Part shown: positions 9,234 to 57,400 of the stretch, piece after piece
Position numbering within the stretch: the stretch's first letter is position 1
Layout: the number at the start of each line of letters is the position of its first letter
From: an uncultured Bacillales bacterium
Lineage (GTDB): Bacteria > Bacillota_I > Bacilli_A > RF39 > UBA660
Assembly (NCBI GenBank): GCA_946412015.1
Contig: CAMKGA010000003.1
Span: 12,932 to 76,931 of the forward strand
DNA length: 64,000 bases
Direction of reading: 5' to 3'
Translations under genes and position numbers: made by a program
The notes under the pieces: generated by a model
Seen by the model: only the letters and a program-made list of their open reading frames with translations
Databases searched by the model: none
What the model was told of the DNA's origin: nothing

Positions 9234-9240
9234 AATCCTC

Positions 9241-40796: not shown

Positions 40797-41066
40797 TTAT
40801 TTTCTTAATCCTAAATCTTTAACAATCTTACGATATCTAGTAACATCATGTTTAATTAAATAATTAAGTAAACTCTTTCTTTGACCAACTTTCTTAAGTA
40901 ATCCTCTTTTTGAATGATGATCATGCTTATGTTCTTTAAAATGTTCTGTTAAAGAATTAATTTCCTCTGTTAAAATAGCAATTTGTACTTCGATAGAACC
41001 AGTATCATTCTCATTCTTTCCAAATTTTTTAACAAGCTCTGCTTTCTTTTCTTTGTTTAAAGCCAT
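40797..41066 (-). CDS. rpsO: 30S ribosomal protein S15
   Basis: 89 aa: [48 protein letters not shown]. Confidence 0.97.
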
Positions 41067-41277: not shown

Positions 41278-41319
41278 AATTCACCTACTTTCAAAACCTT
41301 ATTTCAACCTATAAAATTT

Positions 41320-41898
41320 TTAATTACTTATTTGTAATAGTACTTGATGATGAACACTTGCGCTTCCTTTTTTTATGTATTTAATATCCTCCGCACCACC
41401 TATGATTAGTGCTGGGGTGAAGAAAAATATTTCATTATATTCTAAAGAGCCCAACTGGCTTACTGCAACATTATATAAGTTTTCTCTTAGGACATTCTTT
41501 TTTATTTCACTATCAATAATATAATCATTAAAAAAATCTTGGTATGAATAAGCACACACATCTATTTGTCTATAATGAATATCTAATAATGATATATCAT
41601 TTTCATTATCTTCCAGCTTTCTATAATAAAATATATCTCCAAAAGCACTCATCATTATCGGTATCTTATTAAAATCTTTTTCTCCTAACCAAGTGTATAA
41701 ACTATTCATATAATCTCTTGGATCAACAATTTTAATAATTCCATTACCATAGTTTCCGAATCCATAATTTTCCCATAGATATACTATTTCTTTAGGAAGC
41801 ATTTTTTTTGCAAATTCTAATATTTCATTATCTGGTTTTTTTAAATTATCTCCTGGTTTGTAATTTTCAATAAACTTTTTAACTAAATCTATATTCAT
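41320..41898 (-). CDS. GAD-like + DUF1851 (Tdi1-like) polymorphic-toxin immunity-type protein
   Basis: YLWENYGFGNYGNGIIKIVDPRDY...IPIMMSAFGDIFYYRK, with a C-terminal region FFTPALIIGGAEDIKYIKKGS, as in T6SS/Tdi1-type immunity proteins. Confidence 0.7.
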   Translation of the reverse strand: MNIDLVKKFIENYKPGDNLKKPDNEILEFAKKMLPKEIVYLWENYGFGNYGNGIIKIVDPRDYMNSLYTWLGEKDFNKIPIMMSAFGDIFYYRKLEDNENDISLLDIHYRQIDVCAYSYQDFFNDYIIDSEIKKNVLRENLYNVAVSQLGSLEYNEIFFFTPALIIGGAEDIKYIKKGSASVHHQVLLQISN

Positions 41899-41908
41899 AA
41901 TTCCTCCA

Positions 41909-42790
41909 TTAACTTTTATGCATATCTAAAAACGACTGTTTATGAAGTTCAAAAAGATTTTCATCTAAATTAACCATCTCTATACTAGTACCTTGTATTG
42001 CAAAATAATAAATTTTATCCATTTTTTTTATTTTAAATAATCCCTCATAGCCATGGCCTTCAATCAAATAAAGATATCCATATTCACAGCCTATACCATT
42101 ATAATCAGATATAATATTATTTGATACTAACAAATTAATTGCCATATTAGCAAATTTCTCTTTTTCCTGATTATTATTAATTAAATTTTGTTCCTGCCTT
42201 ATATTATTATTTACTTGTTCAGAATTAGTTACTACTTGCTGATTATTATTTAAAGCCTGTCCATTATTTACACCTTGTTCTATTTTACCGTTTTTACATT
42301 TATCCATAAATCTAGAAAAATTTCCTTCTTGATATGGAATTGATTTTTCAACTACACGAGCTAATTGATGTAAAACCATACCATCTTTTAGTTTAATTTT
42401 TACCTTTTTAGTCTTCTTATTTAAGAAACTAAAATTCTTAATAATAATTGAATCAATATTTTCATTTGCAACAAAAACAAATCTATCCAATAGTGGTTCC
42501 ATATTATCAATTTTAAGTGTTAATTGAATTTTCTTACTCTTTAATGGTATTATACCTAATCCCGTTTCTGTTAGATTAATAAGCATACCATCAAAACCTT
42601 GTATACCTTCAAGCATACCATTTGAAAATGAAGCTGCTGCACCAACTACTCCACCAACTGCGCCTAGTGCTCCATATTTAAATCCCTCTCTATTAGTATT
42701 TTTAAATGTTACAAAAATACAATTTTCATTTCCTATACAATCTAAACTTTTAAATATCTCCATTGCTCCTTCAAGCGTTTTAAAATTCAT
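41909..42790 (-). CDS. hypothetical protein (immunity-island member)
   Basis: 293-aa ORF with Gly-rich patch YGALGAVGGVVGAAASF and an N/Q-rich linker. No family recognised. Confidence 0.6.
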   Translation of the reverse strand: MNFKTLEGAMEIFKSLDCIGNENCIFVTFKNTNREGFKYGALGAVGGVVGAAASFSNGMLEGIQGFDGMLINLTETGLGIIPLKSKKIQLTLKIDNMEPLLDRFVFVANENIDSIIIKNFSFLNKKTKKVKIKLKDGMVLHQLARVVEKSIPYQEGNFSRFMDKCKNGKIEQGVNNGQALNNNQQVVTNSEQVNNNIRQEQNLINNNQEKEKFANMAINLLVSNNIISDYNGIGCEYGYLYLIEGHGYEGLFKIKKMDKIYYFAIQGTSIEMVNLDENLFELHKQSFLDMHKS

Positions 42791-42806
42791 AATTATCCTA
42801 CCTTTT

Positions 42807-43301
42807 CTAAAAAGCTATATCTTTATAACCTATTTTTTTAATTTCTTCATTAATTATTTGTACACCTATACCATTATCATCTATATCTTCTCCATATTTT
42901 TTACTAAATGTAAGATACACACATCTACCTGAATATACATCATCCATCATACTTGCATAAGGAATAATAATTCCATCTAATTCAATTTGTTTTTCCATTT
43001 CACTTGTAGTATTAATCTCTGGCCACCATCTATCAAACTCTTCTTTATCATCTGGCCCATAAGAACCTTTTTCTTCATCATTATAATAATCCAAAACTTT
43101 TTCGATAACATCGAGTTGTATTTTATCCCAATTTTCAATAAGTTTATTATAACTTTCATACTGTATATCATCTATCTTATCATCTTCAGTCTGAATAATT
43201 AAAATTGGCTTTACAGTTGTTCCTAAAAAATCAACTACAATTTCTCCTTGAAATCCTTCATCTTCAACATATTCTAATTTATTTAAATCTATTTCACTCA
43301 T
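42807..43301 (-). CDS. hypothetical acidic protein (immunity-island member)
   Basis: 164-aa ORF: FQGEIVVDFLG...YESYNKLIENWDKIQ...WWPEINT. Resembles small immunity-type domains, but the family is not confidently recalled. Confidence 0.55.
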   Translation of the reverse strand: MSEIDLNKLEYVEDEGFQGEIVVDFLGTTVKPILIIQTEDDKIDDIQYESYNKLIENWDKIQLDVIEKVLDYYNDEEKGSYGPDDKEEFDRWWPEINTTSEMEKQIELDGIIIPYASMMDDVYSGRCVYLTFSKKYGEDIDDNGIGVQIINEEIKKIGYKDIAF

Positions 43302-43330
43302 TTTTTTTCACCTTTATTTTACATAAACAC

Positions 43331-43918
43331 TTATCTATTCTGCATTGATTTAAAGTTTATGTTAAATCTTATTAATTCATCTATTGGAACTATTTTTCTA
43401 TCTCTTTTTTCTATATCATAACTTGATTGTAATAATGGATAAAAATGATATCCTTCTGTTAGTTTTAAACTCTTACAATCTTCTTTCCAATTATTCCATC
43501 TATATAATTCATAAAATTTACTAACATCATCTATTTTATTAATTAACCAATCTATAAATTGTGTATAATATACTTCTAAATTCTCCCATTCATTAGTATC
43601 TGGAGCAAAATAATATACATAACCATCTTTTAATCCAAACAAGCCACCTAATATATCTTCTCCAATTAATATATCAACACTTTTTGAACTATTATAGTTA
43701 TCATTTTTTAAAGTAACATTTAACTCTCCACATCCATACAATCTAATCCAATTATCTACTACTATTCCACCACATCTTATAAATTGTTCATAAAAGAATT
43801 TGTCTTTATATTGTGAATATTTTTTTTCAAATTCCTCTTTTACTTTATTATCTACATTTTCAATTATAAATATATTATCTTTATTTTTAATATCTTCAAA
43901 AAATAAATCCGTTTTCAT
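43331..43918 (-). CDS. DUF2625-family protein (immunity-island member)
   Basis: GGIVVDNWIRLYGCG...ILGGLFGLKDGYVYYFAPDTNEWENLEVYYTQFIDWL...FYELYRWNNW...YHFYPLL matches my memory of the DUF2625 consensus (GWLRILGSG...VYYFAPDTLEWE...). Confidence 0.75.
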   Translation of the reverse strand: MKTDLFFEDIKNKDNIFIIENVDNKVKEEFEKKYSQYKDKFFYEQFIRCGGIVVDNWIRLYGCGELNVTLKNDNYNSSKSVDILIGEDILGGLFGLKDGYVYYFAPDTNEWENLEVYYTQFIDWLINKIDDVSKFYELYRWNNWKEDCKSLKLTEGYHFYPLLQSSYDIEKRDRKIVPIDELIRFNINFKSMQNR

Positions 43919-43970
43919 GTATCCACCTTCTATTACAAACTATATTTATTATAATTCATTATTCTCCAAT

Positions 43971-44309
43971 TTATTTCATTTTAATAATTTCAAATTCTAT
44001 CCTTATAGGAAATTTATTATTTTTTATCCATTCTGAATATTTTTCTACAAAACTATAGAATTCTTGCTTTGGTTTGTTTGCTAAATTTATTTTGATCATA
44101 AATTCAGAATATTCTTTATTATTTGTAGCTTGTTTATATCCACCGTTCATTATATATGTTACATAGTTATTTAGTTTTTCTTGTAACAAATATAAATGTT
44201 CTTCTATGTGATGGTCCCATTGTACAGCATCACTGATACCTAAACATAATAAATTAGTATTATCTTTAAATGTTGTTAATAAGTCAACTTTATTCACATC
44301 TTGTAACAT
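43971..44309 (-). CDS. small immunity-type protein sharing an N-terminal module with 45849-46799 and pseudogene 44683-44963
   Basis: VDLLTTFKDNTNLLCLGISDAVQWDHHIEEHLYLLQEKLNNYVTYI parallels IDIAYTEDNKYILAIFDHLEWNFATRQEHAYILQDKINDYLDYI. Confidence 0.65.
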   Translation of the reverse strand: MLQDVNKVDLLTTFKDNTNLLCLGISDAVQWDHHIEEHLYLLQEKLNNYVTYIMNGGYKQATNNKEYSEFMIKINLANKPKQEFYSFVEKYSEWIKNNKFPIRIEFEIIKMK

Positions 44310-44640
44310 TATTCATGCCTCCTCTGACATAAAAATTCATATGCATATTCTTCAATACTTTCAATTAAATTATCATTTTCATCGAATAATTCATATTGAA
44401 TTTGTACATCACCTAATGATTTTTCTTCATCTGATTCTAATAATACTGTATAAAACTGTTTCATTAATAACTGAATCAATTAATTCTTTAGCTTCATCAG
44501 TTGAAATACCTTTAGAAACTAATTTTTTATTTGTTCTCCTACATATGTTTCTTTGACTTTGTCAAAATATATTTTTTGCATATTTTCTTTAGATAGCATT
44601 TTTTTGCAAATTCTTCAGCAGTCATATATTTCCTATAATT
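44310..44640 (-). pseudogene. decayed ORF (multiple frameshifts)
   Basis: Minus-strand fragments lie in different frames: MQKIYFDKVKETYVGEQIKN*, then VSKGISTDEAKELIDSVINETVLYSIIRIR*, then QFYTVLLESDEEKSLGDVQIQYELFDENDNLIESIEEYAYEFLCQRRHE*. No single frame is open. Confidence 0.5.
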
Positions 44641-44682
44641 AATCTATATTCATTATTTTATTGTTCCATAGTCAACCACTAT

Positions 44683-44963
44683 TTAATATCTTTTTACATT
44701 ATCATCATATTTATATAACATCCATGCCATATTATAACCATATTCCTTAAGCAATTCTTTAAACTTTTTCAAATACTTTTCATCTAACTGTCCAGAATAT
44801 AGATATCCAACATAACTATCTATTTTTGCAGTTAAAATTTTTCAATGCTCTTCTAAAAAATCTTACTCCCAATTTAAATGATCTAATATTTCTAGAACTA
44901 TTTCATTATCTTCAATATACATTAAATCTATTAATCTATTTTATCTAATTGATCAACTGCCAT
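44683..44963 (-). pseudogene. pseudogene of the DHL(E/N)W-module immunity-type family (1 frameshift + in-frame TAA and TGA)
   Basis: MAVDQLDKID, a frameshift, then LIDLMYIEDNEIVLEILDHLNWE*DFLEEH*KILTAKIDSYVGYLYSGQLDEKYLKKFKELLKEYGYNMAWMLYKYDDNVKRY*. Length is 281 nt, not a multiple of 3. Confidence 0.65.
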
Positions 44964-44977
44964 AATAACTATCCTTT

Positions 44978-45637
44978 CTAAAATACTGACTTTCTATTGT
45001 AATTTGTTATATCACTACCAATTTTCTCATACAGTGATTTAACATCAATATTTTTATCCTTTACAGCTAATAATTCATCATTTGTAACCCCAATAAATTC
45101 TACAAATATTAATTTACCATTTGGAGTATCTATTGGATTAAAATCAGTATCTGGTATTGTTATAAAACCTGTGATATTAGACTTCATTTTTGCATCAATT
45201 CCTTGAGTTTGCCCAGTGTATAAAAATTCATAAGGCTTAAATATTTCTCCTTTTGTAAAAGTAAGTCTCGCAATTGATTGCAAAATATTACAAATGCATT
45301 TTATTTCATCCTCTTCATTTTCATAATTATCTTTCTTAAGTTTAAAAGTAAATTCCATACCATAACCACTTATATCTTTATTTTCACTTTCTTTTTCATA
45401 CAATTCAGAAAGACCATATGTTACAAAATGAAAGTAATCTCCACCATCATAAATACTTATTCCATCTAACGGATCATTACCACCAAAATTCCACTTTATT
45501 AATGTTCCAAAGTGTTGTGGATTTTGACCTTTATATCTTCTTTCACATTCTTTAGTAATTGCATCCCAACCTAACATATTATTTTCATTTACCTCTTTAT
45601 TATTTTTATCTTTTTTAAATTTATCAAATATTCCCAT
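44978..45637 (-). CDS. SUFU-like (suppressor-of-fused family) immunity-type protein
   Basis: GWDAITKECERRYKGQNPQHFGTLIKWNFGGNDPLDGISIYDGGDYFHFVTYGLSELYEKESENKDISGYGMEFTFKL is the bacterial SUFU-domain consensus as I recall it. Confidence 0.8.
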   Translation of the reverse strand: MGIFDKFKKDKNNKEVNENNMLGWDAITKECERRYKGQNPQHFGTLIKWNFGGNDPLDGISIYDGGDYFHFVTYGLSELYEKESENKDISGYGMEFTFKLKKDNYENEEDEIKCICNILQSIARLTFTKGEIFKPYEFLYTGQTQGIDAKMKSNITGFITIPDTDFNPIDTPNGKLIFVEFIGVTNDELLAVKDKNIDVKSLYEKIGSDITNYNRKSVF

Positions 45638-45669
45638 ATTAATATTTCTCCAATCTTAATCAATTGTTT

Positions 45670-45848
45670 CTATTTTTTCCAATGATTATTAATTATTTCA
45701 ATAAGTTCTATTACTTGTTATAGTTTTAATTCCTTAAATTAGGACATTATCTATAGCATTTGGATAGTCAAATGATTCTTTACCTTCTGTATATAATAAT
45801 CTATTATCATCTATTAAATAAATTTATAACTCATAAACTTCTCCACTA
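45670..45848 (-). pseudogene. degraded 3' fragment of a paralog of gene 47608-48699
   Basis: Ends with IELIEIINNHWKK* (the intact gene ends KLIEIINNHWKNREK*). Upstream frames are broken by stops. The DNA at 45669-45710 matches 47615-47655. Confidence 0.55.
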
Positions 45849-46799
45849 CTACAGACTATATTTACTACTTACACTTATCTTTTTACTTTCTCTTGAATAA
45901 ACGAATATATCTTTGCAAAATATAAGATTAGAATTTTCTTTTATGTTCCTGTTAAAATTATCTCTTGATTTATTAATCATTTTATTTCTTAATTTTTTAT
46001 CGTTTAATTTTGTAAAGAATACTAAATCTTTAGTAGGGATACTAATGATAATGTCATCATCTAATTGTTTTGCCAAATCATCCCATATTCCTAATAAGAT
46101 GCTTTCCGCTTCAAAATCTCCACCAGCCATGATTCCGAAAATTCCTGGCTCATTTAATTCAATCCATCTAAATTGTATATTTTTAATTAAATTATTGAAT
46201 GCAATTTCTTGTAATTTTTCTGGTGTCATATTTTTTGGCATCATATCATATGTAAAATACCCAAATTTATCCCCTAAATCTACCATTATTAACCCTATAA
46301 AACTATCCCAATATCTAAATAAAACTAAATTATCTGGATAATCTGGTTGGTTATTATCTATATTCATTAATGAAACTTCTTTCAATGGTTTCTTTGAATA
46401 ATTCTTTTTTATTCTTGGATAGATTTTATCAGGTTCAAAGACATAATCATCACTAAAACCATCATCAAATGGTCCTTCATCTTCTGAGTGTGTCCATTCG
46501 ATATCACAAATATCATCTTTTTCTTTTATAAATTTTTTTATTCTTTCAAGAAATTCAATACAATACTTACTATATGGATATTTTGCAATTATTCTTATAA
46601 CTGGACGTAAACCTGGCTTTGCTTTCTCGGCTTGCTCACTTGTAATATAATCTAGATAATCATTTATTTTATCTTGTAAAATATATGCATGTTCTTGTCT
46701 TGTAGCAAAGTTCCATTCTAAATGATCAAATATCGCTAATATATATTTATTATCTTCTGTATATGCAATATCAATTTTATTTCTATCTACTACTGTCAT
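45849..46799 (-). CDS. immunity-island protein (316 aa) with DHLEW N-terminal module
   Basis: MTVVDRNKIDIAYTEDNKYILAIFDHLEWNFATRQEHAYILQDKINDYLDYI. The C-terminal domain was not recognised. Confidence 0.65.
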   Translation of the reverse strand: MTVVDRNKIDIAYTEDNKYILAIFDHLEWNFATRQEHAYILQDKINDYLDYITSEQAEKAKPGLRPVIRIIAKYPYSKYCIEFLERIKKFIKEKDDICDIEWTHSEDEGPFDDGFSDDYVFEPDKIYPRIKKNYSKKPLKEVSLMNIDNNQPDYPDNLVLFRYWDSFIGLIMVDLGDKFGYFTYDMMPKNMTPEKLQEIAFNNLIKNIQFRWIELNEPGIFGIMAGGDFEAESILLGIWDDLAKQLDDDIIISIPTKDLVFFTKLNDKKLRNKMINKSRDNFNRNIKENSNLIFCKDIFVYSRESKKISVSSKYSL

Positions 46800-46865
46800 T
46801 ATTTCTCCCCTCTTAATTATTTTTCTCTATTTTTCCAATGATTATTAATAATTTCAATAAGTTCT
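46760..46865. repeat. ~105-bp duplicated gene junction, copy 1
   Basis: TATATGCAATATCAATTTTATTTCTATCTACTACTGTCATTATTTCTCCCCTCTTAATTATTTTTCTCTATTTTTCCAATGATTATTAATAATTTCAATAAGTTCT. Differs at 3 positions from 47551-47655. Confidence 0.85.
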
Positions 46866-46900
46866 AGTTTTAATTTTTTAATCGAAGACATTATCATAGA
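46817..46900 (-). pseudogene. 3' fragment of a paralog of gene 47608-48699
   Basis: Reads ...SSIKKLKLELIEIINNHWKNREK* with a stop (TGA) about 30 codons upstream. Only the C-terminal ~12 aa match the intact gene. Confidence 0.55.
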
Positions 46901-46938
46901 ATAATCATATTGTCATTTTTTTATTTTATCCAACATAT

Positions 46939-47481
46939 TTATTCTACTTTCACAGCATTATTAATATCTAATGTTATTGTCCAATAAACATCCATATCAA
47001 TTTCTTCTAAATTATCAAGTTCATCTTTACCTCCTAAAGATAAAGGAACTTTAAATCCAACACATTCACCATACTTTATTATTTTATTGTTATTCTTCTC
47101 TAACCATTGATGAAAATAATTTGATGAAAATATACCGTCAGTATTATTTACAATTTCTTCATGAAATTTAACAATATCCATATCAGTAGCGTAACATTCG
47201 TGTTCTTCAGGATCAAACATAATTATCATCTTTGAATTGTTTTCAATAGCATAAATTTTTCCTATCCAATCATATGAAAATACTGAAAAACCACCTTTAT
47301 AATTTGAAAAATACTCACCGACAATACCGTTCCATTTTTCAATATCTTCTTTCTTAAATATGGTATATAATCCATTTAAGAAAGATTTCCCTGATGTATT
47401 TTCAAGAAATTCATCAATAGAATTACATTTTACACCATTATCATAATTAACATATTTTAAAAATTTATCAAACAAATTCAT
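46939..47481 (-). CDS. DUF1851 (Tdi1 C-terminal-like) immunity-type protein
   Basis: GGFSVFSYDWIGKIYAIE...FDPEEHECYATDMDIVKFHEE...GFKVPLSLGGKDELDNLEEIDMDVYW, typical of DUF1851. Confidence 0.75.
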   Translation of the reverse strand: MNLFDKFLKYVNYDNGVKCNSIDEFLENTSGKSFLNGLYTIFKKEDIEKWNGIVGEYFSNYKGGFSVFSYDWIGKIYAIENNSKMIIMFDPEEHECYATDMDIVKFHEEIVNNTDGIFSSNYFHQWLEKNNNKIIKYGECVGFKVPLSLGGKDELDNLEEIDMDVYWTITLDINNAVKVE

Positions 47482-47590
47482 TCCTCCTATTATATTGTAT
47501 CTTGCTTTTAATTATTTTACTTGTTGTAAAATGGATACAAGTACTTTTTTTATATGCAATATCATTTTTATTTCTATCTACTACTGTCAT
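47468..47590 (-). pseudogene. 5' fragment (first ~13 codons) of a paralog of gene 45849-46799, reading through into unrelated sequence
   Basis: MTVVDRNKNDIAYKKSTCIHFTT... compared with MTVVDRNKIDIAYTEDN... in the intact gene. Overlaps the RBS and start of 46939-47481. Confidence 0.6.
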
Positions 47591-47655
47591 TATTTCTCCC
47601 CTCTTAATTATTTTTCTCTATTTTTCCAATGATTATTAATTATTTCAATAAGTTT
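47551..47655. repeat. ~105-bp duplicated gene junction, copy 2
   Basis: Near-identical to 46760-46865. Spans the 3' end of 47608-48699, the intergenic RBS and the first codons of an MTVVDRNK... gene. Confidence 0.85.
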
Positions 47656-48699
47656 TATTGCTTGATTCTTATAATTATCCTTTACCTCTTCAAATTCACT
47701 AAATGTATTACCGCTATTTCTAGAAGTAATTTTATCCTTTTCATATCCCCCTGATACACCTAGCATGTACTCTTTAACTCTAAAACTATTACTTTTAAAC
47801 CTGTAAATATAATAGATAAGCCCATCATACTCTAATTTATCAATAAGTTCTATATTATCTGGTTTATTTCCTAATTCAGTTGGATACATAAGCCAATCAA
47901 TCATTTGTGATTTTGCAATATCTTCCTGTGTTATTTTATCAAGGGATATTTTATTAAGTACATTTGCATTTTCAAATATAGAAATTACTCTATATAAGTT
48001 TTTTTCACTTTTTAAAAGTTCATCTATTTCATTTGAATTAACGTCTAAATTATTAACTAATTTGTATTTTGCAATAAATAATTTACATTCAAAGTTTAAA
48101 TTAAGTTTCGATAATTCTTTTATTAGTTCATCTATTCTTTTATCATCCAAATGTATTGATAAATCTATAATTATTTCTAAATCTGCATAAACTGAATCAT
48201 CTATTGCTTCATTATTCTTTATATAATTAATAATATCTGTTAATTTTCTAACTGTATTATTAGCTATATTATCTTTCTCATCATCATTAAACATTTTAAA
48301 CTCAGGATCATTATTTAATATAATAAGTGCCATACAATTAGCAATACCATTGTCAACATGTTCATATACTGTTATTAATGTGTGTTTTAATGTTTTAAAT
48401 TTTTCTTTAAACAGAGGATACTCTTCTAAATTAGGTATAAATGGTAAATATTCACAAGTAGATTCAATTAACATACAACATAGCATAAACTTAAATTTAT
48501 CATCAGATTTATATAATTCTTCAATTACATATGGTAACTTTTCAAAATCAAGATCATCTATTTCATCACTAAAAATATCATCTATCCATAAATCTAAGTT
48601 TTCAGGACTAATATCAATATTGTCAACTATATTTTTTAATTCTTCTTGTGATTCAATATTCAAGTTATTAATCTCTTCCCTTAATTTATCAAAATTCAT
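47608..48699 (-). CDS. immunity-island protein (363 aa), family not recognised
   Basis: ORF with the start moved to the ATG at 48699, immediately after the upstream stop (the track start is a GTG inside GAGGTGG). The C-terminal tail IEIINNHWKNREK recurs in two remnants. Confidence 0.65.
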   Translation of the reverse strand: MNFDKLREEINNLNIESQEELKNIVDNIDISPENLDLWIDDIFSDEIDDLDFEKLPYVIEELYKSDDKFKFMLCCMLIESTCEYLPFIPNLEEYPLFKEKFKTLKHTLITVYEHVDNGIANCMALIILNNDPEFKMFNDDEKDNIANNTVRKLTDIINYIKNNEAIDDSVYADLEIIIDLSIHLDDKRIDELIKELSKLNLNFECKLFIAKYKLVNNLDVNSNEIDELLKSEKNLYRVISIFENANVLNKISLDKITQEDIAKSQMIDWLMYPTELGNKPDNIELIDKLEYDGLIYYIYRFKSNSFRVKEYMLGVSGGYEKDKITSRNSGNTFSEFEEVKDNYKNQAIKLIEIINNHWKNREK

Positions 48700-48701
48700 A
48701 A

Positions 48702-49493
48702 TTAGTTGTTCCACCTCTCAACAAATATTTCTTTATCCTTATTATCTATTTCAAACACATTACTAGATGTCCTAATAATCGTTGTTCCAATATCATATTC
48801 TAAATATTCTTCAATACTAGGCTCTAATAAAATAACATCATATAATCTTATTAAGGCAATGTTATCACTATTGTTTATATAATCATCAGATTCATCACCT
48901 GCAACAAATGACCATCCACTATCTTCATTATTTAATGGTTCTTCTCTATGCATATAACCAATCTTATAGTTATCATCAATAATTCTTTTTGATACATATG
49001 CCATCTTATTTAATAACTCTTTACGCTTCTTTATATTATCATAATAAGATTCGTGACTTTTAAATTCAGAAATCATTTCATTAGTTATTTCAATATCTGT
49101 ATCTATTTTTGATATGTCACCATCAAATATGCGTTTATCATCTGCTTCATTTTTAAGTGCTATAGCTAATTTAAATAATTCATCAGAATTGACATCAATA
49201 GTGTCTTTTATTTCTTTAAAAAGATGTTTACCTCTTTCATCATAAATATATAAATATATGCTACAGTTACTATGAATAATTAATTTCACTGCTCCTAAAT
49301 TATCTTTATCATTATAAAACACCATAAAATTAGATAACTTCTGATTTACATACCAATCAAATTCAGTACCATTGTTACCATTCATATAGTATATTGCACC
49401 ATTATCTTCTAAATCCTTATTTTTTACATTAGGAAGATATTGGTTTATACCGTTATTAATTATTTCTTTTATTTTAAGTATTACTTTATTCAT
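48702..49493 (-). CDS. protein with C-terminal DUF2185/Imm33-like immunity domain
   Basis: YVSKRIIDDNYKIGYMHREEPLNNEDSGWSFVAGDESDDYINNSDNIALIRLYDVILLEPSIEEYL. Confidence 0.7.
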   Translation of the reverse strand: MNKVILKIKEIINNGINQYLPNVKNKDLEDNGAIYYMNGNNGTEFDWYVNQKLSNFMVFYNDKDNLGAVKLIIHSNCSIYLYIYDERGKHLFKEIKDTIDVNSDELFKLAIALKNEADDKRIFDGDISKIDTDIEITNEMISEFKSHESYYDNIKKRKELLNKMAYVSKRIIDDNYKIGYMHREEPLNNEDSGWSFVAGDESDDYINNSDNIALIRLYDVILLEPSIEEYLEYDIGTTIIRTSSNVFEIDNKDKEIFVERWNN

Positions 49494-49513
49494 TTAGCCT
49501 CCCAATTAATATA

Positions 49514-49918
49514 CTACTTATACATAAATAAATTATTAATTATTTCTTCAAATTGACAAGTAGCCATTTTATCAAAATAAAGTACATAACCATTAAATTT
49601 TATTTTACCTTCATTAAATACTACTACTTTATTTAAATTAATTCTAAAATAAGTATTCTTTATAAATAAGAACTTATTTTCTTCTTTTCTACAGTCAACA
49701 ATGTCATCTAAAATATTTATTTTAAAAGTAACAGAACCATTATCTATAAAAATGTTTTTATTAGTCATAGTTAGTTTTGCATCTATTCCAAGATTTTGTT
49801 GTTTTTCTGTACCAAACGTTTTTAATTTAGATGTAAATACTACTTTTTCATCTTCTGTAATCTTAGCATCATATATATTATCTACTTCATTTAATTTATT
49901 AAGATATTCAATATTCAT
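49514..49918 (-). CDS. hypothetical protein (immunity-island member)
   Basis: 134-aa ORF. No motif recognised. Confidence 0.55.
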   Translation of the reverse strand: MNIEYLNKLNEVDNIYDAKITEDEKVVFTSKLKTFGTEKQQNLGIDAKLTMTNKNIFIDNGSVTFKINILDDIVDCRKEENKFLFIKNTYFRINLNKVVVFNEGKIKFNGYVLYFDKMATCQFEEIINNLFMYK

Positions 49919-49954
49919 ATTTTGTTTCTCCTTTTTTTCATTTATAAAACTATT

Positions 49955-50554
49955 TTAGCACCAATCAAATTGAAATCCATATTTTTCTTCTATATCGTTT
50001 ACAATTTCATCATCTTGAGCTGACAAAAATATATCATTTTCAGATACAAACCCTATTGCTTTATCAGTATAACAATAAACACAATAATTACCATCAATTT
50101 CTGACATTTTAATAAAATTTTTGTTTAATATATCTAGGCATGATGTATCAGTTTGTACAATACAGTTTAAAAAGCCTGTCCCTTGTATAGCTAACAAATA
50201 TAAAATAAAATCTTTAATATCTAAATTAATCTCTTCCTTATAGTCATCAGTAAAATAAACTATCTTTTGATTTTTTACATTTAATCCATAACTACAAACT
50301 CCTTGATTTTCAACAGCAAGTGTTAATATATCATTTTTAACTTCTAACTTTTCTGGTGAAATAATGCTATACAAACATTCTAAAAAATCTGTTTTGTTCC
50401 CAAACATTATATAAAACACTTGTAATGGTTCTGGTATACTAATATTTAATTTTTTCTCAATTGAAACTATTTTATCTTTTTTTAAAATATTTTTATTATC
50501 TTGTTCAAAATAAATTTTACTTATTAATTCTAATTTTTCTTTAAAATTTTTCAT
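49955..50554 (-). CDS. SMI1/KNR4 (SUKH superfamily) immunity-type protein
   Basis: VSIEKKLNISIPEPLQVFYIMFGN... then NQGVCSYGLNVKNQKIVYF, the SUKH-type pattern. Confidence 0.7.
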   Translation of the reverse strand: MKNFKEKLELISKIYFEQDNKNILKKDKIVSIEKKLNISIPEPLQVFYIMFGNKTDFLECLYSIISPEKLEVKNDILTLAVENQGVCSYGLNVKNQKIVYFTDDYKEEINLDIKDFILYLLAIQGTGFLNCIVQTDTSCLDILNKNFIKMSEIDGNYCVYCYTDKAIGFVSENDIFLSAQDDEIVNDIEEKYGFQFDWC

Positions 50555-50583
50555 ATCATTATCTTTCCTATCTAATAATTTTA

Positions 50584-51231
50584 CTATTTATTCTTTTTAC
50601 TATATTTATTAAATTCATTAATAAAATCTTTAGGGCTGCGATTATTAACTGACAACAATTCAAAATTAGTAATATCTCTAATTTTAATACCATCAATTTC
50701 ATAATTCAAAAATTGTTCTAAACTCATAGCATCAGAAAAATTAATATAACAGTCTCCAATTTCTGCCTTTTCGTCTAAATCAGGAATTTTTTTTAATTGT
50801 GCTTCAAAATAGTAAATCTTACTATTAATTCTTACATACATTGCCATAAACCCGGCGAATGTTAAACTAAAGTCAAAAACTTCTTTAGGCATATTAACAT
50901 TATCATATTCAAAATGTTTTTGCTCACTTAAATATTTATATATTTTTTTAGCATAAAACAAATTTCGAAATGTCAAAAAAACTGTCGCTAAAAAGATTAA
51001 AACCATAATACCCACTAATATTATGGATAATCTTGCTAGGAATCCCAAAATCCAATCTAATTGTTTTACATCATTCTTCCACCTTACAATTGAAAAGAAA
51101 AAGAAAACTAATATTAAAATTAATATTTTATAAAAATCTTTTAAAAGATAATTTACATGCTTTTTTTTAATTTTTTTCTTATCTATTTGATATTCCTGCT
51201 GTAAATTAATCAAATATTCATCTTTATTCAT
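50584..51231 (-). CDS. hypothetical two-TM membrane protein (immunity-island member)
   Basis: Start set at the ATG at 51231 (AAGGAGATAATGAT-ATG). TM segments ILILILVFFFFSIV and LARLSIILVGIMVLIFLATVFLTF. Confidence 0.6.
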   Translation of the reverse strand: MNKDEYLINLQQEYQIDKKKIKKKHVNYLLKDFYKILILILVFFFFSIVRWKNDVKQLDWILGFLARLSIILVGIMVLIFLATVFLTFRNLFYAKKIYKYLSEQKHFEYDNVNMPKEVFDFSLTFAGFMAMYVRINSKIYYFEAQLKKIPDLDEKAEIGDCYINFSDAMSLEQFLNYEIDGIKIRDITNFELLSVNNRSPKDFINEFNKYSKKNK

Positions 51232-51244
51232 ATCATTATCTCCT

Positions 51245-52120
51245 TTATCTATTTCCTGACGCATACTCTAAAGTATTAACATCAATAACTTCTCGAATAG
51301 GTTGTATTAGCGAATCTTCATATTGTAACTTCCATTTTGTAATATTATTACTATCTTTATTTTTCAATCCATCAATTGTATCCCCATTTTTTATTGGATT
51401 ATCATTATCAAATATATATTTAAGAAAACTATATGCATGATTTATAATTTGATCTGGATTAATGGCATGAAAATGATACTGTAAATCGGGCATAAAAAGT
51501 GTACTCATACCTAATGTATCAACCAGCATATCATTTGTTCCAGTAATATTAAAGTATCTCATATTAACAGCATAATGAATAAAGCGATGTTCTTTAGATA
51601 TCTTACAATTTACTATATCTTCCCTTTTTAACATTTTTTTTGATGTATCAAATACTACTGCTTTACATGTTGGATATAATTCAACTAAAGCTTCAATATA
51701 TTCAACTAACATGTTAGCTCTAACTTTATAATTTAAAAAGTCAGCTAAAAAGTCTGTTGCAACTACTTGATAATTACAACTATCTAAGATATCTATTCCA
51801 TTTTCAACATCCCATAATTGTGTTTTCGCAATATCGTCCATAATTGGTTCGTTAATTTCTACACACTCTGATATTAAAAGATGTACGGGAAGATCAATTT
51901 CTTTTTCATTCTTAATTAGATATTTTTTAGATACAAAATCTACCACTTTTTTATCATAATGCATACATTCAACATTTTCAAGGTGCTTATTCATTATTTC
52001 TATCATATTATCTCGATTTGGCATATCACAAGGCTTACCCATAAGTAAACGAATAACAAATACAGATCCTGGTCTTTCTCCTAAATCACTTAAATCCTGT
52101 TTTAATTCTTTTTCTTTCAA
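51245..52120 (-). CDS. immunity-island protein, possibly DUF4261-like
   Basis: TLGMSTLFMPDLQYHFHAINPDQIINHAYSFLKYIFDNDNPIKNGDTIDG. The family name is recalled only tentatively. Confidence 0.5.
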   Translation of the reverse strand: MKEKELKQDLSDLGERPGSVFVIRLLMGKPCDMPNRDNMIEIMNKHLENVECMHYDKKVVDFVSKKYLIKNEKEIDLPVHLLISECVEINEPIMDDIAKTQLWDVENGIDILDSCNYQVVATDFLADFLNYKVRANMLVEYIEALVELYPTCKAVVFDTSKKMLKREDIVNCKISKEHRFIHYAVNMRYFNITGTNDMLVDTLGMSTLFMPDLQYHFHAINPDQIINHAYSFLKYIFDNDNPIKNGDTIDGLKNKDSNNITKWKLQYEDSLIQPIREVIDVNTLEYASGNR

Positions 52121-52131
52121 AATGTCATCAC

Positions 52132-52527
52132 CTAATTTTTTAATATTTCTTCTAATGTAGTATCTTTATCATTTTTTAAATCATAAAAACCTGTAAAATT
52201 GCCTTTTTTATCATACATCCAACATAAATCTGTACCATATGGTGCATCAAATATTTTAAGTATCAATGGATTAATTTTATTAATCGATGTTGCAGATAAA
52301 ATCATAAAGTTATCTGGATTATTAACATATTCCTGTGTATCATCACATGAATATATTGTCCAACCATTTAAGCTCTCATTTGAACTTTTCTCTCTATACG
52401 TATATCTTATAGGCCTATTTGCACATACATTCTTTGATACCATAAATCCTCCATAAGCACTATCATTTATATCATCATTTACATAATTATTTATTGCATT
52501 TTGTTTTGCTTTTTTATTAAAAAACAT
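52132..52527 (-). CDS. DUF2185/Imm33-like immunity-type protein
   Basis: VSKNVCANRPIRYTYREKSSNESLNGWTIYSCDDTQEYVNNPDNFMILSATSINKINPLILKIF parallels the C-terminus of 48702-49493. Confidence 0.7.
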   Translation of the reverse strand: MFFNKKAKQNAINNYVNDDINDSAYGGFMVSKNVCANRPIRYTYREKSSNESLNGWTIYSCDDTQEYVNNPDNFMILSATSINKINPLILKIFDAPYGTDLCWMYDKKGNFTGFYDLKNDKDTTLEEILKN

Positions 52528-52590
52528 ATTTTTTACCTTCTTTCATTATTAATCTTTAAAATATTCATCCATTATAATCGTCTCCTTAAA

Positions 52591-52917
52591 CTATTTTTCA
52601 AACGGACAAACTATAGTTTGATTATTAACTGTATCATTATACTCAGCTTTCCAATAATGTCTATCATTTATATTTCTATAAACTACACTTTCTAAATCAT
52701 TTTTTATTTCTGCTTTAAATGGATACTCTAAAAAAATAAAAATTGAATCATCAGGTATATTTGTAAATCTACCCTTATATATTTCTTTGATTTTATTACC
52801 ACATTTTAATTCATTATCTAATATTTCTTTCATAGTATTGCTTAATTCATTAATAAGTGAATAGTCCAGTTCCTTAGAAAGAATATCTTTAGTATTCTTT
52901 TTTTTAAATAACCACAT
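52591..52917 (-). CDS. hypothetical protein (first gene of immunity island)
   Basis: 108-aa ORF starting 12 nt after the SEDS gene stop. No motif recognised. Confidence 0.5.
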   Translation of the reverse strand: MWLFKKKNTKDILSKELDYSLINELSNTMKEILDNELKCGNKIKEIYKGRFTNIPDDSIFIFLEYPFKAEIKNDLESVVYRNINDRHYWKAEYNDTVNNQTIVCPFEK

Positions 52918-52929
52918 ATCTATTATAAC

Positions 52930-54063
52930 CTACTTTCCAGTTTCAATACTTACTCTTTGTACTAGTGCAATAGATATTAATAATGATAATGTAAAACTAC
53001 CTCCATAGGATAAAAATGGAAGTGGTACACCAGTTAAAGGAATAAGGCCAAATAACCCTCCTAAGTTGATTGCAATATGCATAAATATGTATGTTGCAAC
53101 TCCAATACAAGTATACTTATTTTTTATAGAGTTAGTCATTCTAGAAAGTCTAAGTATTCTATATATAAGTATAATATAGTTTAAAAATATAATGCTTCCC
53201 CCAATAAGACCGTTCTCTTCAGAAATTATAGAAAATACCATATCAGTATGAGGTTCTGGTATATAAGAATACTTTTGTGTACTCTTTCCTATTCCAAGCC
53301 CAAATACATTACCTTTATTAATAGCTATAAAAGCATTACAAATCTGATATCCTGTTGTAGAATAATTAGCACATGGATTACGATAATCAAATCTTGATAA
53401 CTGAGCTTTAGTAAGTGGATTCCCTTTAATAATAAATATTCCAAGAATTCCTATAAACATTAATATAATACCAATAACAATTGTTTTAAACTTATCATTT
53501 GATGTAATTGGACTAGTTAAATATATTACAAAATATATAACTGCTAATATTGCTGCCGTTCCTAAATCCTTTTGCAAACATACAAGTAGTATTAATGGAA
53601 TACCAATTAATAATATAATAATTAAGTACTTTAAGTGACTTACTTTTTCACTAACTAAAACTTTATTAAACTTCTCAAGCATAAATGATAATGTAACTAT
53701 CATAATTGGCTTTGCCAGTTCACTAGGCTGCAAATTAAAAAAGCCAAGCTGAATCCAGTTTGCTGCACCTCTAGTAGTTCCACCTTGAAATATTAAAAAA
53801 GCATTTAAAAATAGTATTCCAAAAAATAGAATTGGTATAAAATTATAATACCGTTTTAAAGGGATATTAATTACTATTACACTTGCAACAAACGATATAA
53901 CAAGAATAGCTAAATGCCTATAAAAATAATAATATAATGACTTGTCTAAATGAATAACTGCTTCTCTACTTGATGCAGTAACAATATTAAAAAGTCCATA
54001 CAAACTAAGTAAAATAGTAATAAATAATATAACTTTATCCATATCTTTTAGTGTCTTTCTCAT
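52930..54063 (-). CDS. SEDS-family peptidoglycan polymerase (FtsW/RodA/SpoVE)
   Basis: About 10 TM segments. Motifs include GAANWIQLGFFNLQPSELAKP, YIPEPHTDMVFSIISEENG and LPFLSYGGS. Confidence 0.9.
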   Translation of the reverse strand: MRKTLKDMDKVILFITILLSLYGLFNIVTASSREAVIHLDKSLYYYFYRHLAILVISFVASVIVINIPLKRYYNFIPILFFGILFLNAFLIFQGGTTRGAANWIQLGFFNLQPSELAKPIMIVTLSFMLEKFNKVLVSEKVSHLKYLIIILLIGIPLILLVCLQKDLGTAAILAVIYFVIYLTSPITSNDKFKTIVIGIILMFIGILGIFIIKGNPLTKAQLSRFDYRNPCANYSTTGYQICNAFIAINKGNVFGLGIGKSTQKYSYIPEPHTDMVFSIISEENGLIGGSIIFLNYIILIYRILRLSRMTNSIKNKYTCIGVATYIFMHIAINLGGLFGLIPLTGVPLPFLSYGGSFTLSLLISIALVQRVSIETGK

Positions 54064-54185: not shown

Positions 54186-54356
54186 ATGTATTACTATGGT
54201 GGATACCAAGGCTATGGTGGAGCACCAGGATATGGTTGTTGTAACCAAGGAGGATACTCTACAGGTTACGGTGCAGCTATAATCCTAGTATTATTTATTC
54301 TTTTAGTAATTGTAATTGGTGCACGCACTTGGGGCGGAAATAACTTTAATAATTAA
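54186..54356 (+). CDS. 56-aa YjcZ-like Gly/Tyr-rich small membrane (sporulation-type) protein
   Basis: AGGAGGTATTAT-ATG. Translates to MYYYGGYQGYGGAPGYGCCNQGGYSTGYGAAIILVLFILLVIVIGARTWGGNNFNN. Below the ORF-track cutoff. Confidence 0.7.
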   Translation: MYYYGGYQGYGGAPGYGCCNQGGYSTGYGAAIILVLFILLVIVIGARTWGGNNFNN

Positions 54357-54360
54357 TAAG

Positions 54361-54390
54361 AAAACACTATCATTTTTTTGATAGTGTTTT
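54361..54390. terminator. bidirectional terminator (perfect 12-bp stem)
   Basis: AAAACACTATCA-TTTTTT-TGATAGTGTTTT, flanked by A- and T-runs. Lies between the convergent 54186-54356 (+) and 54389-54685 (-) genes. Confidence 0.8.
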
Positions 54391-54685
54391 AATTATTGTT
54401 TACCTTGTATTTTTTCAATTCATCATCAACCATTTTGATATAACTATTATAATCATCTGTCATATATCCAATATGATATATTTTTTTTACAACTTCTTTA
54501 TTAAATACAATTGTCTCTTGATGTGATGAAAATCCATAAGGATAAACTACAGCATAGTAATCATAAGGTTTTTTTGTTTTACTATTTATAGGAGAATATC
54601 CAATAATCATAAATTTGTTTTCATTGAACCTAATTGAAACAACAGAGCCAACCGGTAACCAATCGTTTTCTAAATCAAAACTCAT
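54389..54685 (-). CDS. DUF4176-family protein (paralog 3)
   Basis: DWLPVGSVVSIRFNENKFMIIGYSPINSKTKKPYDYYAVVYPYGFSSHQETIVFNKEVVKKIYHIGY. Start set at the ATG at 54685 (GGAGGAATTG-ATG). Confidence 0.75.
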   Translation of the reverse strand: MSFDLENDWLPVGSVVSIRFNENKFMIIGYSPINSKTKKPYDYYAVVYPYGFSSHQETIVFNKEVVKKIYHIGYMTDDYNSYIKMVDDELKKYKVNNN

Positions 54686-54932
54686 CAATTCCTCCATTTT
54701 TAACAATTTCTTTTATTTCTGAAAATTCTACAATTAACTCTTTTGCAAGATTATCAGATTTTACTCTTTCAAATATCCACCCATCATCTTTTCTAATTAA
54801 CTTACAAAAATATCCACATTCACTTTCTTCATCTACAAGAAAAGCGTACCAATCTCCATTAAACATTTTTACATCATAAACATATAAATCGTTTTCACCA
54901 TTACTTATATATTGCCCTTTTTCTATATTCAT
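54675..54932 (-). CDS. hypothetical 85-aa cytoplasmic protein in toxin-like operon
   Basis: ORF overlapping both neighbours. MNIEKGQYISNGENDLYVYDVKMFNGDWYAFLVDEE... No motif recognised. Confidence 0.6.
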   Translation of the reverse strand: MNIEKGQYISNGENDLYVYDVKMFNGDWYAFLVDEESECGYFCKLIRKDDGWIFERVKSDNLAKELIVEFSEIKEIVKNGGIDEF

Positions 54933-55312
54933 TTCTTTTTTCCACCTACTTCATAATCATCATCATAATCATCATCATAATCATCATCATAATCATCATA
55001 GTCTTTATTTTCCTTTTTATGAAATATATCTGGCTTCACTGCCTTAAAAAATGATGCAAATCCAACTACTCCAAGTGCTAATAATGGACCGTCTAAAGCA
55101 ATTTCTGCAAAAATATCATTTCTAGGTATTTCAAAAATTGCAGGAATAGATCCATATACAATCATAGAAGCACAACATATAAGAAATCTTTTTATGTTCT
55201 TCCCAAAATCATTTTTTTTTGCTTTCTTTTTAAAATCTTTTATTTGTTTATCTGTCATATAAAATGTATCTATAACCTCGTGATTATTTAAATTCATTTT
55301 CCCATTTTTCAT
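54929..55312 (-). CDS. two-TM membrane protein with poly-(Asp/Tyr) acidic C-terminal tail; candidate immunity protein
   Basis: TM segments FLICCASMIVYGSIPAIF and LLALGVVGFASFF. Tail is KDYDDYDDDYDDDYDDDYEVGGKKK. Confidence 0.7.
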   Translation of the reverse strand: MKNGKMNLNNHEVIDTFYMTDKQIKDFKKKAKKNDFGKNIKRFLICCASMIVYGSIPAIFEIPRNDIFAEIALDGPLLALGVVGFASFFKAVKPDIFHKKENKDYDDYDDDYDDDYDDDYEVGGKKK

Positions 55313-55581
55313 TGTTTTTTCTCCTTTTTAGCTACAACTTCTAACATTTCTTTATATTTTTTATCCTTATATCCATTATAATAAATCAATTTTATATCAT
55401 CTGAATTAAAAACATAATTTTTTTCTTTGGTTAAAAAACCTTCCGGATATGTATATCCAATGTAATCATATCTTTCCCCTGGCTTACTTGGATCAGTTGC
55501 ACCATACCCTATTATAAAAAACTTTTTATCTGTACCATTTAATTTTACAACAGTTCCTATTGGTAAATATTTATCATTCAT
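55309..55581 (-). CDS. DUF4176-family protein (paralog 2)
   Basis: KYLPIGTVVKLNGTDKKFFIIGYGATDPSKPGERYDYIGYTYPEGFLTKEKNYVFNSDDIKLIYYNGY. The ATG at 55581 is preferred over the GTG at 55593. Confidence 0.75.
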   Translation of the reverse strand: MNDKYLPIGTVVKLNGTDKKFFIIGYGATDPSKPGERYDYIGYTYPEGFLTKEKNYVFNSDDIKLIYYNGYKDKKYKEMLEVVAKKEKKQ

Positions 55582-55861: not shown

Positions 55862-55880
55862 AAATTATACACCTTCCATA

Positions 55881-57317: not shown

Positions 57318-57362
57318 GTCATCACCCTCCAGCCATATCATTACCCTAGCTATTATACGTTA

Positions 57363-57391: not shown

Positions 57392-57400
57392 CAAAGATTT

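Follow-up and report, generated by a model that had tools for sequence, protein, structure and literature searches.

A probable polyimmunity locus inserted between SEDS and rpsO genes of uncultured Bacilli from gut or rumen

Genes and features of the array

We analyzed a stretch of DNA from an uncultured Bacillales bacterium (contig CAMKGA010000003.1; the whole 64-kb stretch is called the window here) that carries an array of immunity-type genes between a gene of the SEDS family and the ribosomal protein gene rpsO. An earlier note, made from the letters of this DNA, had described a single-strand array of about 17 genes at this position, and exactly 17 open reading frames (ORFs) of at least 50 amino acids (aa) are present on the minus strand at 41320-52917, all of them co-directional. 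Ten of these (A01, A03, A04, A05, A07, A08, A09, A11, A15, and A16) have a Pfam family above the gathering score. Seven of the assigned ORFs (two Tdi1, one SUFU, two Imm33, and two DUF6572) fall into four families that experiments or the literature connect with immunity. Together with one pseudogene, the 17 ORFs make up the content of an inserted island whose bounds were set against a related contig that lacks it (L062; L numbers label the contigs and loci compared with the window in this analysis). The features of the locus are listed below.

38614-40743: pnp, core gene beyond rpsO
40797..41066, minus: rpsO, downstream core flank; Pfam Ribosomal_S15, E 5.6e-36
41278..52939, minus: whole inserted island, 11.66 kb
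41320..41898, minus: A01, 192 aa, full-length GAD-like plus T6SS_Tdi1_C (DUF1851); GAD-like E 1.8e-11, 44.3 bits; Tdi1_C E 5.9e-17, 61.7 bits
41909..42790, minus: A02, 293 aa, no family; two PH-like modules and a disordered Q/N-rich linker; AlphaFold2 (AF2) pLDDT 69
42807..43301, minus: A03, DUF6985; Pfam E 8.5e-16
43331..43918, minus: A04, DUF2625; Pfam E 1.5e-30
43971..44309, minus: A05, 112 aa, stand-alone DUF6572, strain-variable cassette; Pfam E 3.8e-19
44309..44479, minus: A06, 56 aa, probably a gene remnant; no credible family match
44656..44940, minus: DUF6572-like pseudogene, decayed, three in-frame stops; blastp to A08 E 2e-11, to A05 E 4e-5
44978..45637, minus: A07, SUFU-family immunity-type protein; Pfam E 6.3e-28, full profile covered
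45849..46799, minus: A08, 316 aa, N-terminal DUF6572 (residues 1-95) and about 220 C-terminal aa without family; Pfam E 8.9e-21
46939..47481, minus: A09, 180 aa, Tdi1_C (DUF1851) only, strain-variable cassette; Pfam E 2.2e-10, 40.7 bits
47608..48714, minus: A10, 368 aa (363 aa from an alternative start), no family; predicted alpha-solenoid plus small beta sheet (AF2)
48702..49493, minus: A11, 263 aa, N-terminal domain without family and C-terminal Imm33 (residues 166-247); Pfam E 1.5e-24
49514..49918, minus: A12, 134 aa, no family match; recurs in a mini-array of another organism
49955..50554, minus: A13, 199 aa, possible SUKH (SMI1/KNR4) protein; sub-threshold match, 18.0 bits against a gathering score of 25.4, E 0.0046
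50584..51264, minus: A14, 226 aa (215 aa from an alternative start), predicted membrane protein without family; two hydrophobic spans, residues 37-66 and 68-105 (hydropathy scan)
51245..52120, minus: A15, 291 aa, C-terminal DUF4261; Pfam E 1.9e-22
52132..52527, minus: A16, Imm33 (DUF2185) immunity-family protein; Pfam E 1.9e-17, 63.3 bits against a gathering score of 25.4
52591..52917, minus: A17, 108 aa, no family in Pfam, NCBIfam, or PADLOC
52930..54063, minus: SEDS (FtsW/RodA/SpoVE family) gene, upstream core flank; Pfam FTSW_RODA_SPOVE, E 1.8e-76

Pfam bore out the GAD-like/DUF1851, DUF2625, SUFU, and Imm33/DUF2185 calls of the earlier note, A09 matching Tdi1_C only. The family that had been recognized there by its DHL(E/N)W module corresponds to Pfam DUF6572, found in A05, in A08, and in the decayed copy between A06 and A07. 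DUF6985 in A03 and DUF4261 in A15 are assignments beyond those of the note. For A13, the proposed SMI1/KNR4 identity stands as a weak match, but the score falls below the gathering score. Among the homologs of A13, PF09346 was found in one of eight clusters, and the protein that carries it is 57% identical to A13.

Homologs of A10, which matched no family, form about 110 clusters from metagenome-assembled genomes (MAGs) of gut Bacilli and Clostridia, nearly all of them 355 to 390 aa long. The AF2 model of A10 (pLDDT 93.5) has an alpha-solenoid and, after it, a three-stranded sheet and a helix. A Foldseek comparison of this model with the PDB returned nothing at E ≤ 0.001, and the best weak resemblances were to ARM/HEAT scaffolds. 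The A02 model showed a weak resemblance to PH/PTB structures (E 3e-3 to 5e-2), and a gene of the A02 type adjoins a Tdi1-type gene also in L076 and L087. A01 is the cassette closest to rpsO; it is present in all variants of the array, with 77 to 100% identity across L053-L061. A plasmid homolog of the Tdi1 type overlaps a gene annotated as “polymorphic toxin type 15.”

The array is tightly packed. A17 starts 12 nucleotides (nt) past the SEDS stop codon, and the median spacer is about 29 nt; the four spacers longer than 100 nt (126, 139, 211, and 498 nt) are filled by duplicated junction remnants or by the decayed gene. Terminator-like sites were found only past rpsO and upstream of the SEDS gene, with none inside the array. 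A promoter scan was uninformative, returning 145 sites against 151 expected, which is chance level in AT-rich DNA. The island is not compositionally distinct, because its G+C content of 24.2% compares with about 25% across the whole window (24.8% for the window and 24.8 to 25.8% for the flanks), and a compositional island was ruled out on this ground. No tRNA was found in the window, and no Rfam family reached its gathering score in 38000-58500, so that this region has no match to a structured RNA or riboswitch.

A 31-aa ORF (MHDKTNDEKTKNDVNEELNEYFDLDSLDIES) precedes rpsO at about 41183-41278 on the minus strand. It is conserved and is called in every related contig L053-L062, and in the contig with the empty site its ATG lies 4 nt past the SEDS stop codon. 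Either a leader peptide or a small protein might be encoded here; the region gave no match to an Rfam S15 leader.

Empty site, strain variation, and related cassettes

A search with the SEDS protein gave 52 related loci from MAGs of uncultured Bacilli, “Tenericutes,” and Erysipelotrichaceae, and the public relatives of the host are uncultured gut or rumen Bacilli MAGs labeled Erysipelotrichaceae, Tenericutes, or Mollicutes. The SEDS gene is syntenic with rpsO in all 52 loci. In about 20 of them, rpsO and pnp lie within about 140 to 250 bp of the SEDS gene, and def is typically divergent, a few hundred bp upstream. (The spacer between def and the SEDS gene is also variable, for example by about 7 kb in L036.) The SEDS gene adjoins rpsO, with no island, in the closest species representatives, L001 (80% identity in SEDS and 94% in polynucleotide phosphorylase) and L002. 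No array protein was found in any of the 52 species-level SEDS loci at E < 1e-5.

An exact-sequence look-up of the S15 protein of the window retrieved ten contigs (L053-L062), and the same look-up with the SEDS protein returned no record. L062 is the empty site: it encodes an identical S15 protein, and its flanks are 92 to 94% identical to those of the window. In a blastn alignment, window position 52940 corresponds to L062 position 6410 and window position 41277 to L062 position 6431, so that 20 bp stand in place of the 11.66 kb. In the junction alignment, each end of the island carries the decamer GAAAGTAGGT; the SEDS stop codon is part of it.

The same array, differing by whole cassettes, is found in seven contigs with about 99% identity to the window. 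The segment 43923-44959 (A05, A06, and the pseudogene) is missing from L054/L068, L055, and L059, and 46823-47590 (A09) is missing from L055 and L059; in L055, a SUKH gene replaces A17. L068 is an independent assembly with the same order of def, DUF4176 operon (described below), SEDS gene, array, and rpsO; because it reproduces the whole order, the architecture is not an assembly artifact. Contig NODE_1655 of ERZ12289772 likewise contains the entire locus. Within this group, A12 is 87% identical in L054 and L055, where the background identity is 97 to 100% and the neighboring cassettes are 96 to 100% identical, and 98% identical in L059, a pattern that points to replacement of the allele or to diversifying selection acting on this cassette alone.

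A second lineage (L053, L056, and L073) is about 80 to 88% identical to the window in nucleotides. In L053, which alone among these three contigs covers the interval completely, the array is about 8 kb long and has eight cassettes in common with the window, in unchanged order. From the SEDS side, L053 carries A17, SMI1 fragments, A11, A10, A07, A04, a unique 205-aa gene, a split A03, A02, and A01. Protein identities of the shared cassettes range from 59 to 88%, with the A17 copy, in the same position, at 59%. The A03 gene is split in all three contigs. The interval varies among relatives, as seen from the empty site in L062, from L001, L002, and about 20 other species with the SEDS gene next to rpsO, and from cassette changes at about 99% identity. 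The island is clearly accessory and variable, not core.

Scars of cassette gain are visible as direct repeats.

45674..45717: third, partial copy; A10-type 3′-end remnant, ELIEIINNHWKK with its stop codon, upstream of A07
46755..46866: direct repeat copy 1, 112 nt; A10 3′ end, ribosome-binding site (RBS), and A08 5′ start
47546..47657: direct repeat copy 2, 112 nt; 96% identical to copy 1

The two 112-nt copies flank A09, and the last A10 codons in the repeat read LIEIINNHWKNREK before the stop. In L053, the A10 homolog is followed by SUFU with a single called 45-aa ORF between them. The simplest reading of these sequences is that A08, and later A09, would have been inserted at the A10/A07 junction, duplicating the junction each time. 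The site of the 43923-44959 segment is the short spacer that separates the stop codon of A07 from the RBS of A04. The three-copy A10-end segment is the sole repeat family, and no motif common to the remaining spacers was found in the repeat search, which was not an enrichment of the MEME type.

Cassettes of the same types occur elsewhere. In a metagenome scan with A01 as the query, Tdi1 homologs with 68 to 71% identity were found in mini-arrays of other organisms, located at other places in the chromosome. One of these (L079-L085) sits between a tRNA methyltransferase gene and Ham1 and contains a Tdi1 fragment, DUF4272, SUFU (70% identical to A07), a 274-aa gene, and an A12 homolog (43%) about 1.5 kb from SUFU. 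Another (L076) contains an A02-like fragment, Tdi1 (71%), Imm42, and a DUF4261 fragment. In L066, SMI1/KNR4, Imm45, and Tdi1 genes lie 5 kb from an A10 homolog. The scanned ORFs of L083 and L076 matched no toxin or recombinase family.

Two side observations concern the surroundings of these mini-arrays. Ham1 (inosine triphosphatase) has a mini-array just upstream in L083/L085 (10001-13643) and an A10 homolog directly downstream in another genome (L066, 8386-10098); its neighborhood may be a second recurrent site for such cassettes. In L076, which comes from a more distant organism, the sporulation genes YabP and YqfD (9238-10803) adjoin the Tdi1/Imm42 mini-array. The host of the window had been called spore-forming in the earlier note, a description that found no support, as none of about 55 scanned window ORFs matches a sporulation-specific family.

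Elsewhere in the clade, the SEDS-rpsO interval holds 1 to 3 kb of other cargo: type IV pilin-like N_methyl genes in L016 and L018, Tim44-like genes in L015, and family-less genes in L010 and L011. The pilin-like and Tim44-like inserts are not of immunity type. Because other species hold unrelated cargo there, the site behaves as a general insertion hotspot, and one could imagine that its cargo is miscellaneous everywhere, with no common function, and that the immunity flavor of the island is partly an artifact of annotation. Six of the 17 ORFs have no family, three of the Pfam DUFs have no functional evidence behind them, and homologs of A10 and A02 are mostly singletons amid housekeeping genes, without toxin nearby or conflict context (between QueH and a lactamase_B protein, between argG and argH, and next to Ham1), all of which fits such a picture. 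A random accessory sample hardly explains, however, the concentration of 7 ORFs and one pseudogene in four immunity-linked families. Independent arrays also repeat pairings (SUFU with A12 and Tdi1; Tdi1 with Imm42 and DUF4261; SMI1 with Imm45 and Tdi1), and the single orientation and tight spacing fit an operon, not a junkyard. We consider a functionally miscellaneous cargo very unlikely.

Toxin absence, the upstream operon, and known immunity loci

The earlier note had seen no toxin domain and no recombinase in the array, and profile searches agree: with Pfam and NCBIfam at E ≤ 0.1, no toxin, nuclease, deaminase, ADP-ribosyltransferase, recombinase, or transposase was found in any array ORF of at least 50 aa. 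A toxin hidden in a family-less ORF was ruled out by the same searches and by the non-enzyme folds of the A10 and A02 models; A12, A14, and A17 were checked by sequence profiles only, and A10 and A02 also by AF2 and Foldseek. The modeled folds of A10 and A02 look like binding-type scaffolds, not enzymes. PDB sequence searches with A02, with A13, and with a 486-aa protein encoded upstream of the array (see below) gave no match. Mobility by a recombinase, an integron, or an integrative and conjugative element (ICE) was likewise ruled out: the ORFs scanned across 27.7-63.8 kb match no recombinase or integrase family, no conjugation or integrase gene was found near the island, there is no tRNA, and the sole repeat family has three copies.

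An accessory, strain-variable array in a hotspot location is also what one would see in an island of anti-phage defense or toxin-antitoxin genes. These shared traits are what speaks for that alternative, positive evidence from the sequence being absent. PADLOC models gave no significant match to 10 array proteins (best E values, 0.003 to 0.008, with scores too low to be meaningful), and a phage defense island was ruled out on this basis. Pfam and NCBIfam showed no nuclease, ATPase, methylase, toxin-antitoxin toxin, or other enzymatic domain, and the modeled folds of A10 and A02 have the character of binding scaffolds. A defense or toxin-antitoxin function has, in our estimate, next to no chance of being the correct explanation.

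A second insertion, separate from the array, lies on the other side of the SEDS gene.

54356..57531, minus: second insertion, 3.2 kb, between def and the SEDS gene

Its operon (54389-57341) encodes a 486-aa protein, three DUF4176 proteins, a two-span membrane protein (54929-55312, with a DDYDDDY acidic tail, by hydropathy), and an 85-aa ORF. The 486-aa protein has no Pfam family; its Gly/Ala-rich last approximately 180 aa recur C-terminally on 232 representative proteins with diverse N termini (HMMER). Identification of this protein as an LXG toxin was unsupported, the LXG domain being present neither in the protein nor in 45 scanned homologs. DUF4176 proteins are chaperones of toxins exported by the type VII secretion system b (T7SSb) (PMC12478183). 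A candidate T7SS-type effector operon is a plausible reading of these genes. Of the claim in the earlier note that the array lies directly downstream of such an operon, the three DUF4176 genes remain; on the other side, no LXG, WXG100, EssC, or other T7SS core gene was found in the window, and the SEDS gene intervenes.

The proximity of this operon bears on whether the array is orphan at all. The cassettes might instead be a store of self-immunity for the organism's own T7SSb toxins, encoded in the DUF4176 operon or elsewhere, and would then be cognate. The candidate effector operon lies 1.4 kb upstream, its chaperone-type genes point to T7SSb toxins, array and 3.2-kb insertion are jointly absent from L062, L001, and L002 and jointly present in L068, and the visible genome is limited to 64 kb. 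DUF6572, moreover, is a conserved module of T7SSb immunity proteins of S. suis that binds the D1 domain of EssC and is dispensable for neutralization (PMC12558993). In L053, however, the array is present with UvrD in place of the DUF4176 operon upstream of the SEDS gene, and the array is therefore independent of the operon. The operon also holds a candidate immunity gene of its own, that of the two-span membrane protein, and its lone 486-aa candidate effector would explain one or two cassettes at most. Cognate immunity genes normally stand directly behind their toxin, as on the B. mycoides plasmid described below; here, 17 stand in a row with no toxin. A self-immunity store is, in our judgment, unlikely.

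Heterogeneous polyimmunity loci were defined by Zhang, de Souza, Anantharaman, Iyer, and Aravind (2012, Biol Direct 7:18; PMC3482391). They are tandem arrays of unrelated immunity genes with no interrupting toxins, in one orientation, with short spacers and strain-varying content, and with Firmicutes among the phyla; SuFu, Imm33, and SUKH are typical components, and an adjacent XerC/D-type recombinase occurs “in several cases,” so that it is not obligatory. Like these loci, the island consists of tandem unrelated immunity-family genes, including SUFU and Imm33/DUF2185 (the SUKH match being sub-threshold here), and it is toxin-free, confined to one strand, closely spaced, strain dependent in content, and found in a Firmicute. 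All five features of the definition that apply and are testable are present, including every obligatory one that can be tested in sequence. Unlike several polyimmunity loci, it has no adjacent XerC/D-type recombinase. It differs also in being set between the core genes SEDS and rpsO with an exactly defined empty site, and in its host, which belongs to an uncultured Bacilli lineage of the gut or rumen and has about 24% GC. DUF2625, DUF4261, DUF6985, DUF6572, A02, A10, A12, A14, and A17 have no match among the polyimmunity families in the available part of PMC3482391.

Consolidated orphan immunity genes of gut bacteria are also known from the acquired interbacterial defense (AID) systems AID-1, AID-2, and rAID-1 of Bacteroidales (Ross et al. 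2019; bioRxiv 10.1101/471110). The rAID-1 systems comprise up to 31 genes and can exceed 16 kb; they are recognized by a XerD-like recombinase, GC skew, integron-like spacers, and a Bacteroidales host (bioRxiv 10.1101/471110). The island resembles them as a large co-directional array (17 genes, 11.7 kb) of orphan immunity genes with strain-varying content in a gut organism, and its 17 ORFs exceed the at least two co-directional downstream genes expected of rAID-1. Tdi1-type immunity genes are a further likeness to AID; orphan Tdi1 proteins of AID systems protect against Ntox15 nucleases (PMC10470768). In contrast to rAID-1, the 5′ gene is SEDS and not a XerD-like recombinase, and there is neither GC skew nor an integron-like spacer motif. 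Unlike AID-1 and AID-2, the island does not reside on a mobile element such as an ICE; its flanks are the core genes SEDS, rpsO, and pnp, syntenic in more than 20 species. The host, too, is of a Gram-positive-type Bacilli lineage, and the threats to be expected are therefore toxins of T7SSb or other systems distinct from the type VI secretion system. Because the defining features of rAID-1 are missing, the island may work like AID by analogy, yet it is not a member. The orphan immunity repertoire that the earlier note had proposed, AID-like in concept, is supported, and it fits a class already defined, the heterogeneous polyimmunity locus (PMC3482391).

Two further systems are closer in phylogeny. 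The T7SS “antitoxin islands” of S. aureus carry orphan ExiCD and DUF600/EsaG-type genes in strains without the matching toxin (PMC12744356). They share with the island an orphan immunity cluster in Bacillota and a mixture of membrane and soluble types (predicted here). Unlike them, the island has no DUF600, DUF5079, or DUF5080 and is heterogeneous rather than dominated by paralogs, and a T7SS core locus is not seen in the 64-kb window. As for a T7SSb effector locus, the features present are the three DUF4176 genes and the 486-aa protein upstream, with no LXG, WXG100, or EssC in the window or among 45 homologs of the 486-aa protein. On plasmid p397 of B. mycoides (NZ_CP035969.1, 97.9-108.4 kb), SMI1/KNR4, Tdi1, and SUFU cassettes alternate with HNH, AHH, NucA-type, and GH-E toxin cassettes. 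The plasmid has the same immunity families in a co-directional array and in Bacilli, whereas the array of the window contains no toxin cassettes and lacks what marks a regular polymorphic-toxin locus. By analogy, p397 shows the immunity role that SMI1/KNR4, Tdi1, and SUFU have in Bacilli, and it highlights the absence of toxins here.

Three observations concern other parts of the window. A 1551-aa ORF without a Pfam family at E ≤ 0.001 (107-4762, minus strand) adjoins a gene for a staphylococcal nuclease homolog (4902-5660). A gene for a RhuM-family “virulence protein” (7711-8751, minus strand; E 3.6e-107) lies between glyA (serine hydroxymethyltransferase) and a histidine phosphatase gene and may be another small accessory insertion. 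Inside an ORF at 33005-34462 (485 aa, no Pfam family), two adjacent segments of about 158 nt at 33902-34243, 78% identical, form a tandem duplication, which surfaced as secondary blastn matches in all conspecific contigs.

Interpretation and biological meaning

We interpret the island as a heterogeneous polyimmunity locus, that is, an orphan-immunity island that is accessory, strain-variable, operon-like, and toxin-free, and we assign this interpretation a probability of about 0.8. The three outcomes that had been named beforehand as telling against it, failure of the profiles, a conserved interval, and a hidden toxin, did not occur.

The array would most likely be transcribed with or through the SEDS-rpsO housekeeping unit, because its genes lie on the same strand, with a 12-nt gap to the SEDS gene and spacers of about 29 nt, and the stretch from the SEDS promoter region to the end of rpsO contains no terminator-like site. 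If the known properties of the families hold here, each product would bind and neutralize one class of toxin delivered by neighboring bacteria. The Tdi1-type products would act against Ntox15 DNases; the SUFU, Imm33, and SUKH types against HNH/AHH-type and other nucleases; and the membrane protein A14 against a membrane-acting toxin. In a crowded gut or rumen community, the bacterium would thereby be protected in advance. Cassette gains and losses and the duplicated junctions are directly visible in the sequences; the repertoire would be remodeled cassette by cassette through recombination at junctions and exchange through the conserved flanks, with no dedicated recombinase.

Several points weigh against this interpretation. 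Neither Pfam nor NCBIfam assigns a family to A02, A06, A10, A12, A14, or A17, nor does PADLOC to the five of these other than A06, and A13 is only a possible SUKH protein, given its sub-threshold score. We found no published immunity link for DUF2625, DUF4261, or DUF6985, which are immunity candidates by association only. The same is true of A10 and A02, because their homologs elsewhere are singletons without a toxin; support for an immunity role through toxin adjacency in other genomes was sought for these two and failed. Since DUF6572 is reported to bind EssC and to aid effector export, A05 and A08 may be export adaptors and not neutralizers. The neutralizing role of the array products, with their toxin pairing and expression, is predicted from families, and co-transcription with the SEDS gene is predicted from layout, the promoter scan being at chance level. 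Cognate toxins could also be encoded outside the visible 64 kb, in which case some cassettes would be cognate rather than orphan.

A more specific version of the polyimmunity interpretation is tentative, and we consider it rather unlikely. In this version, the locus would be a recombinase-free “hitchhiker” inside a unit of SEDS gene, rpsO leader, rpsO, and pnp, and it would therefore be expressed constitutively, as it is inserted in a housekeeping transcription unit. It would grow by capture of single cassettes with junction duplications and share cassettes with mini-arrays at other core-gene junctions of related gut Bacilli; several of its members would represent new immunity families, and the DUF6572 modules, stand-alone or N-terminal, would have EssC and not a toxin as their target. 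If this were true, the new families would be the A10 solenoid, the A02 tandem-PH protein, DUF2625, DUF4261, DUF6985, and A12.

The island does not introduce a new principle, as polyimmunity loci were defined in 2012, protection by AID systems was demonstrated in 2019, and the class has thus been validated by experiment in other phyla. What is particular to this case is the host lineage, the recombinase-free insertion in a housekeeping string, the exact empty site, the junction scars, and the uncharacterized candidate families, from which A10, A02, A12, DUF2625, DUF4261, and DUF6985 provide a shortlist of potential new immunity proteins. The locus offers a clean natural orphan-immunity island outside the well-studied Bacteroidales and staphylococci, and it suggests that contact-dependent toxin warfare, probably of the T7SSb type, shapes these poorly known members of the community.

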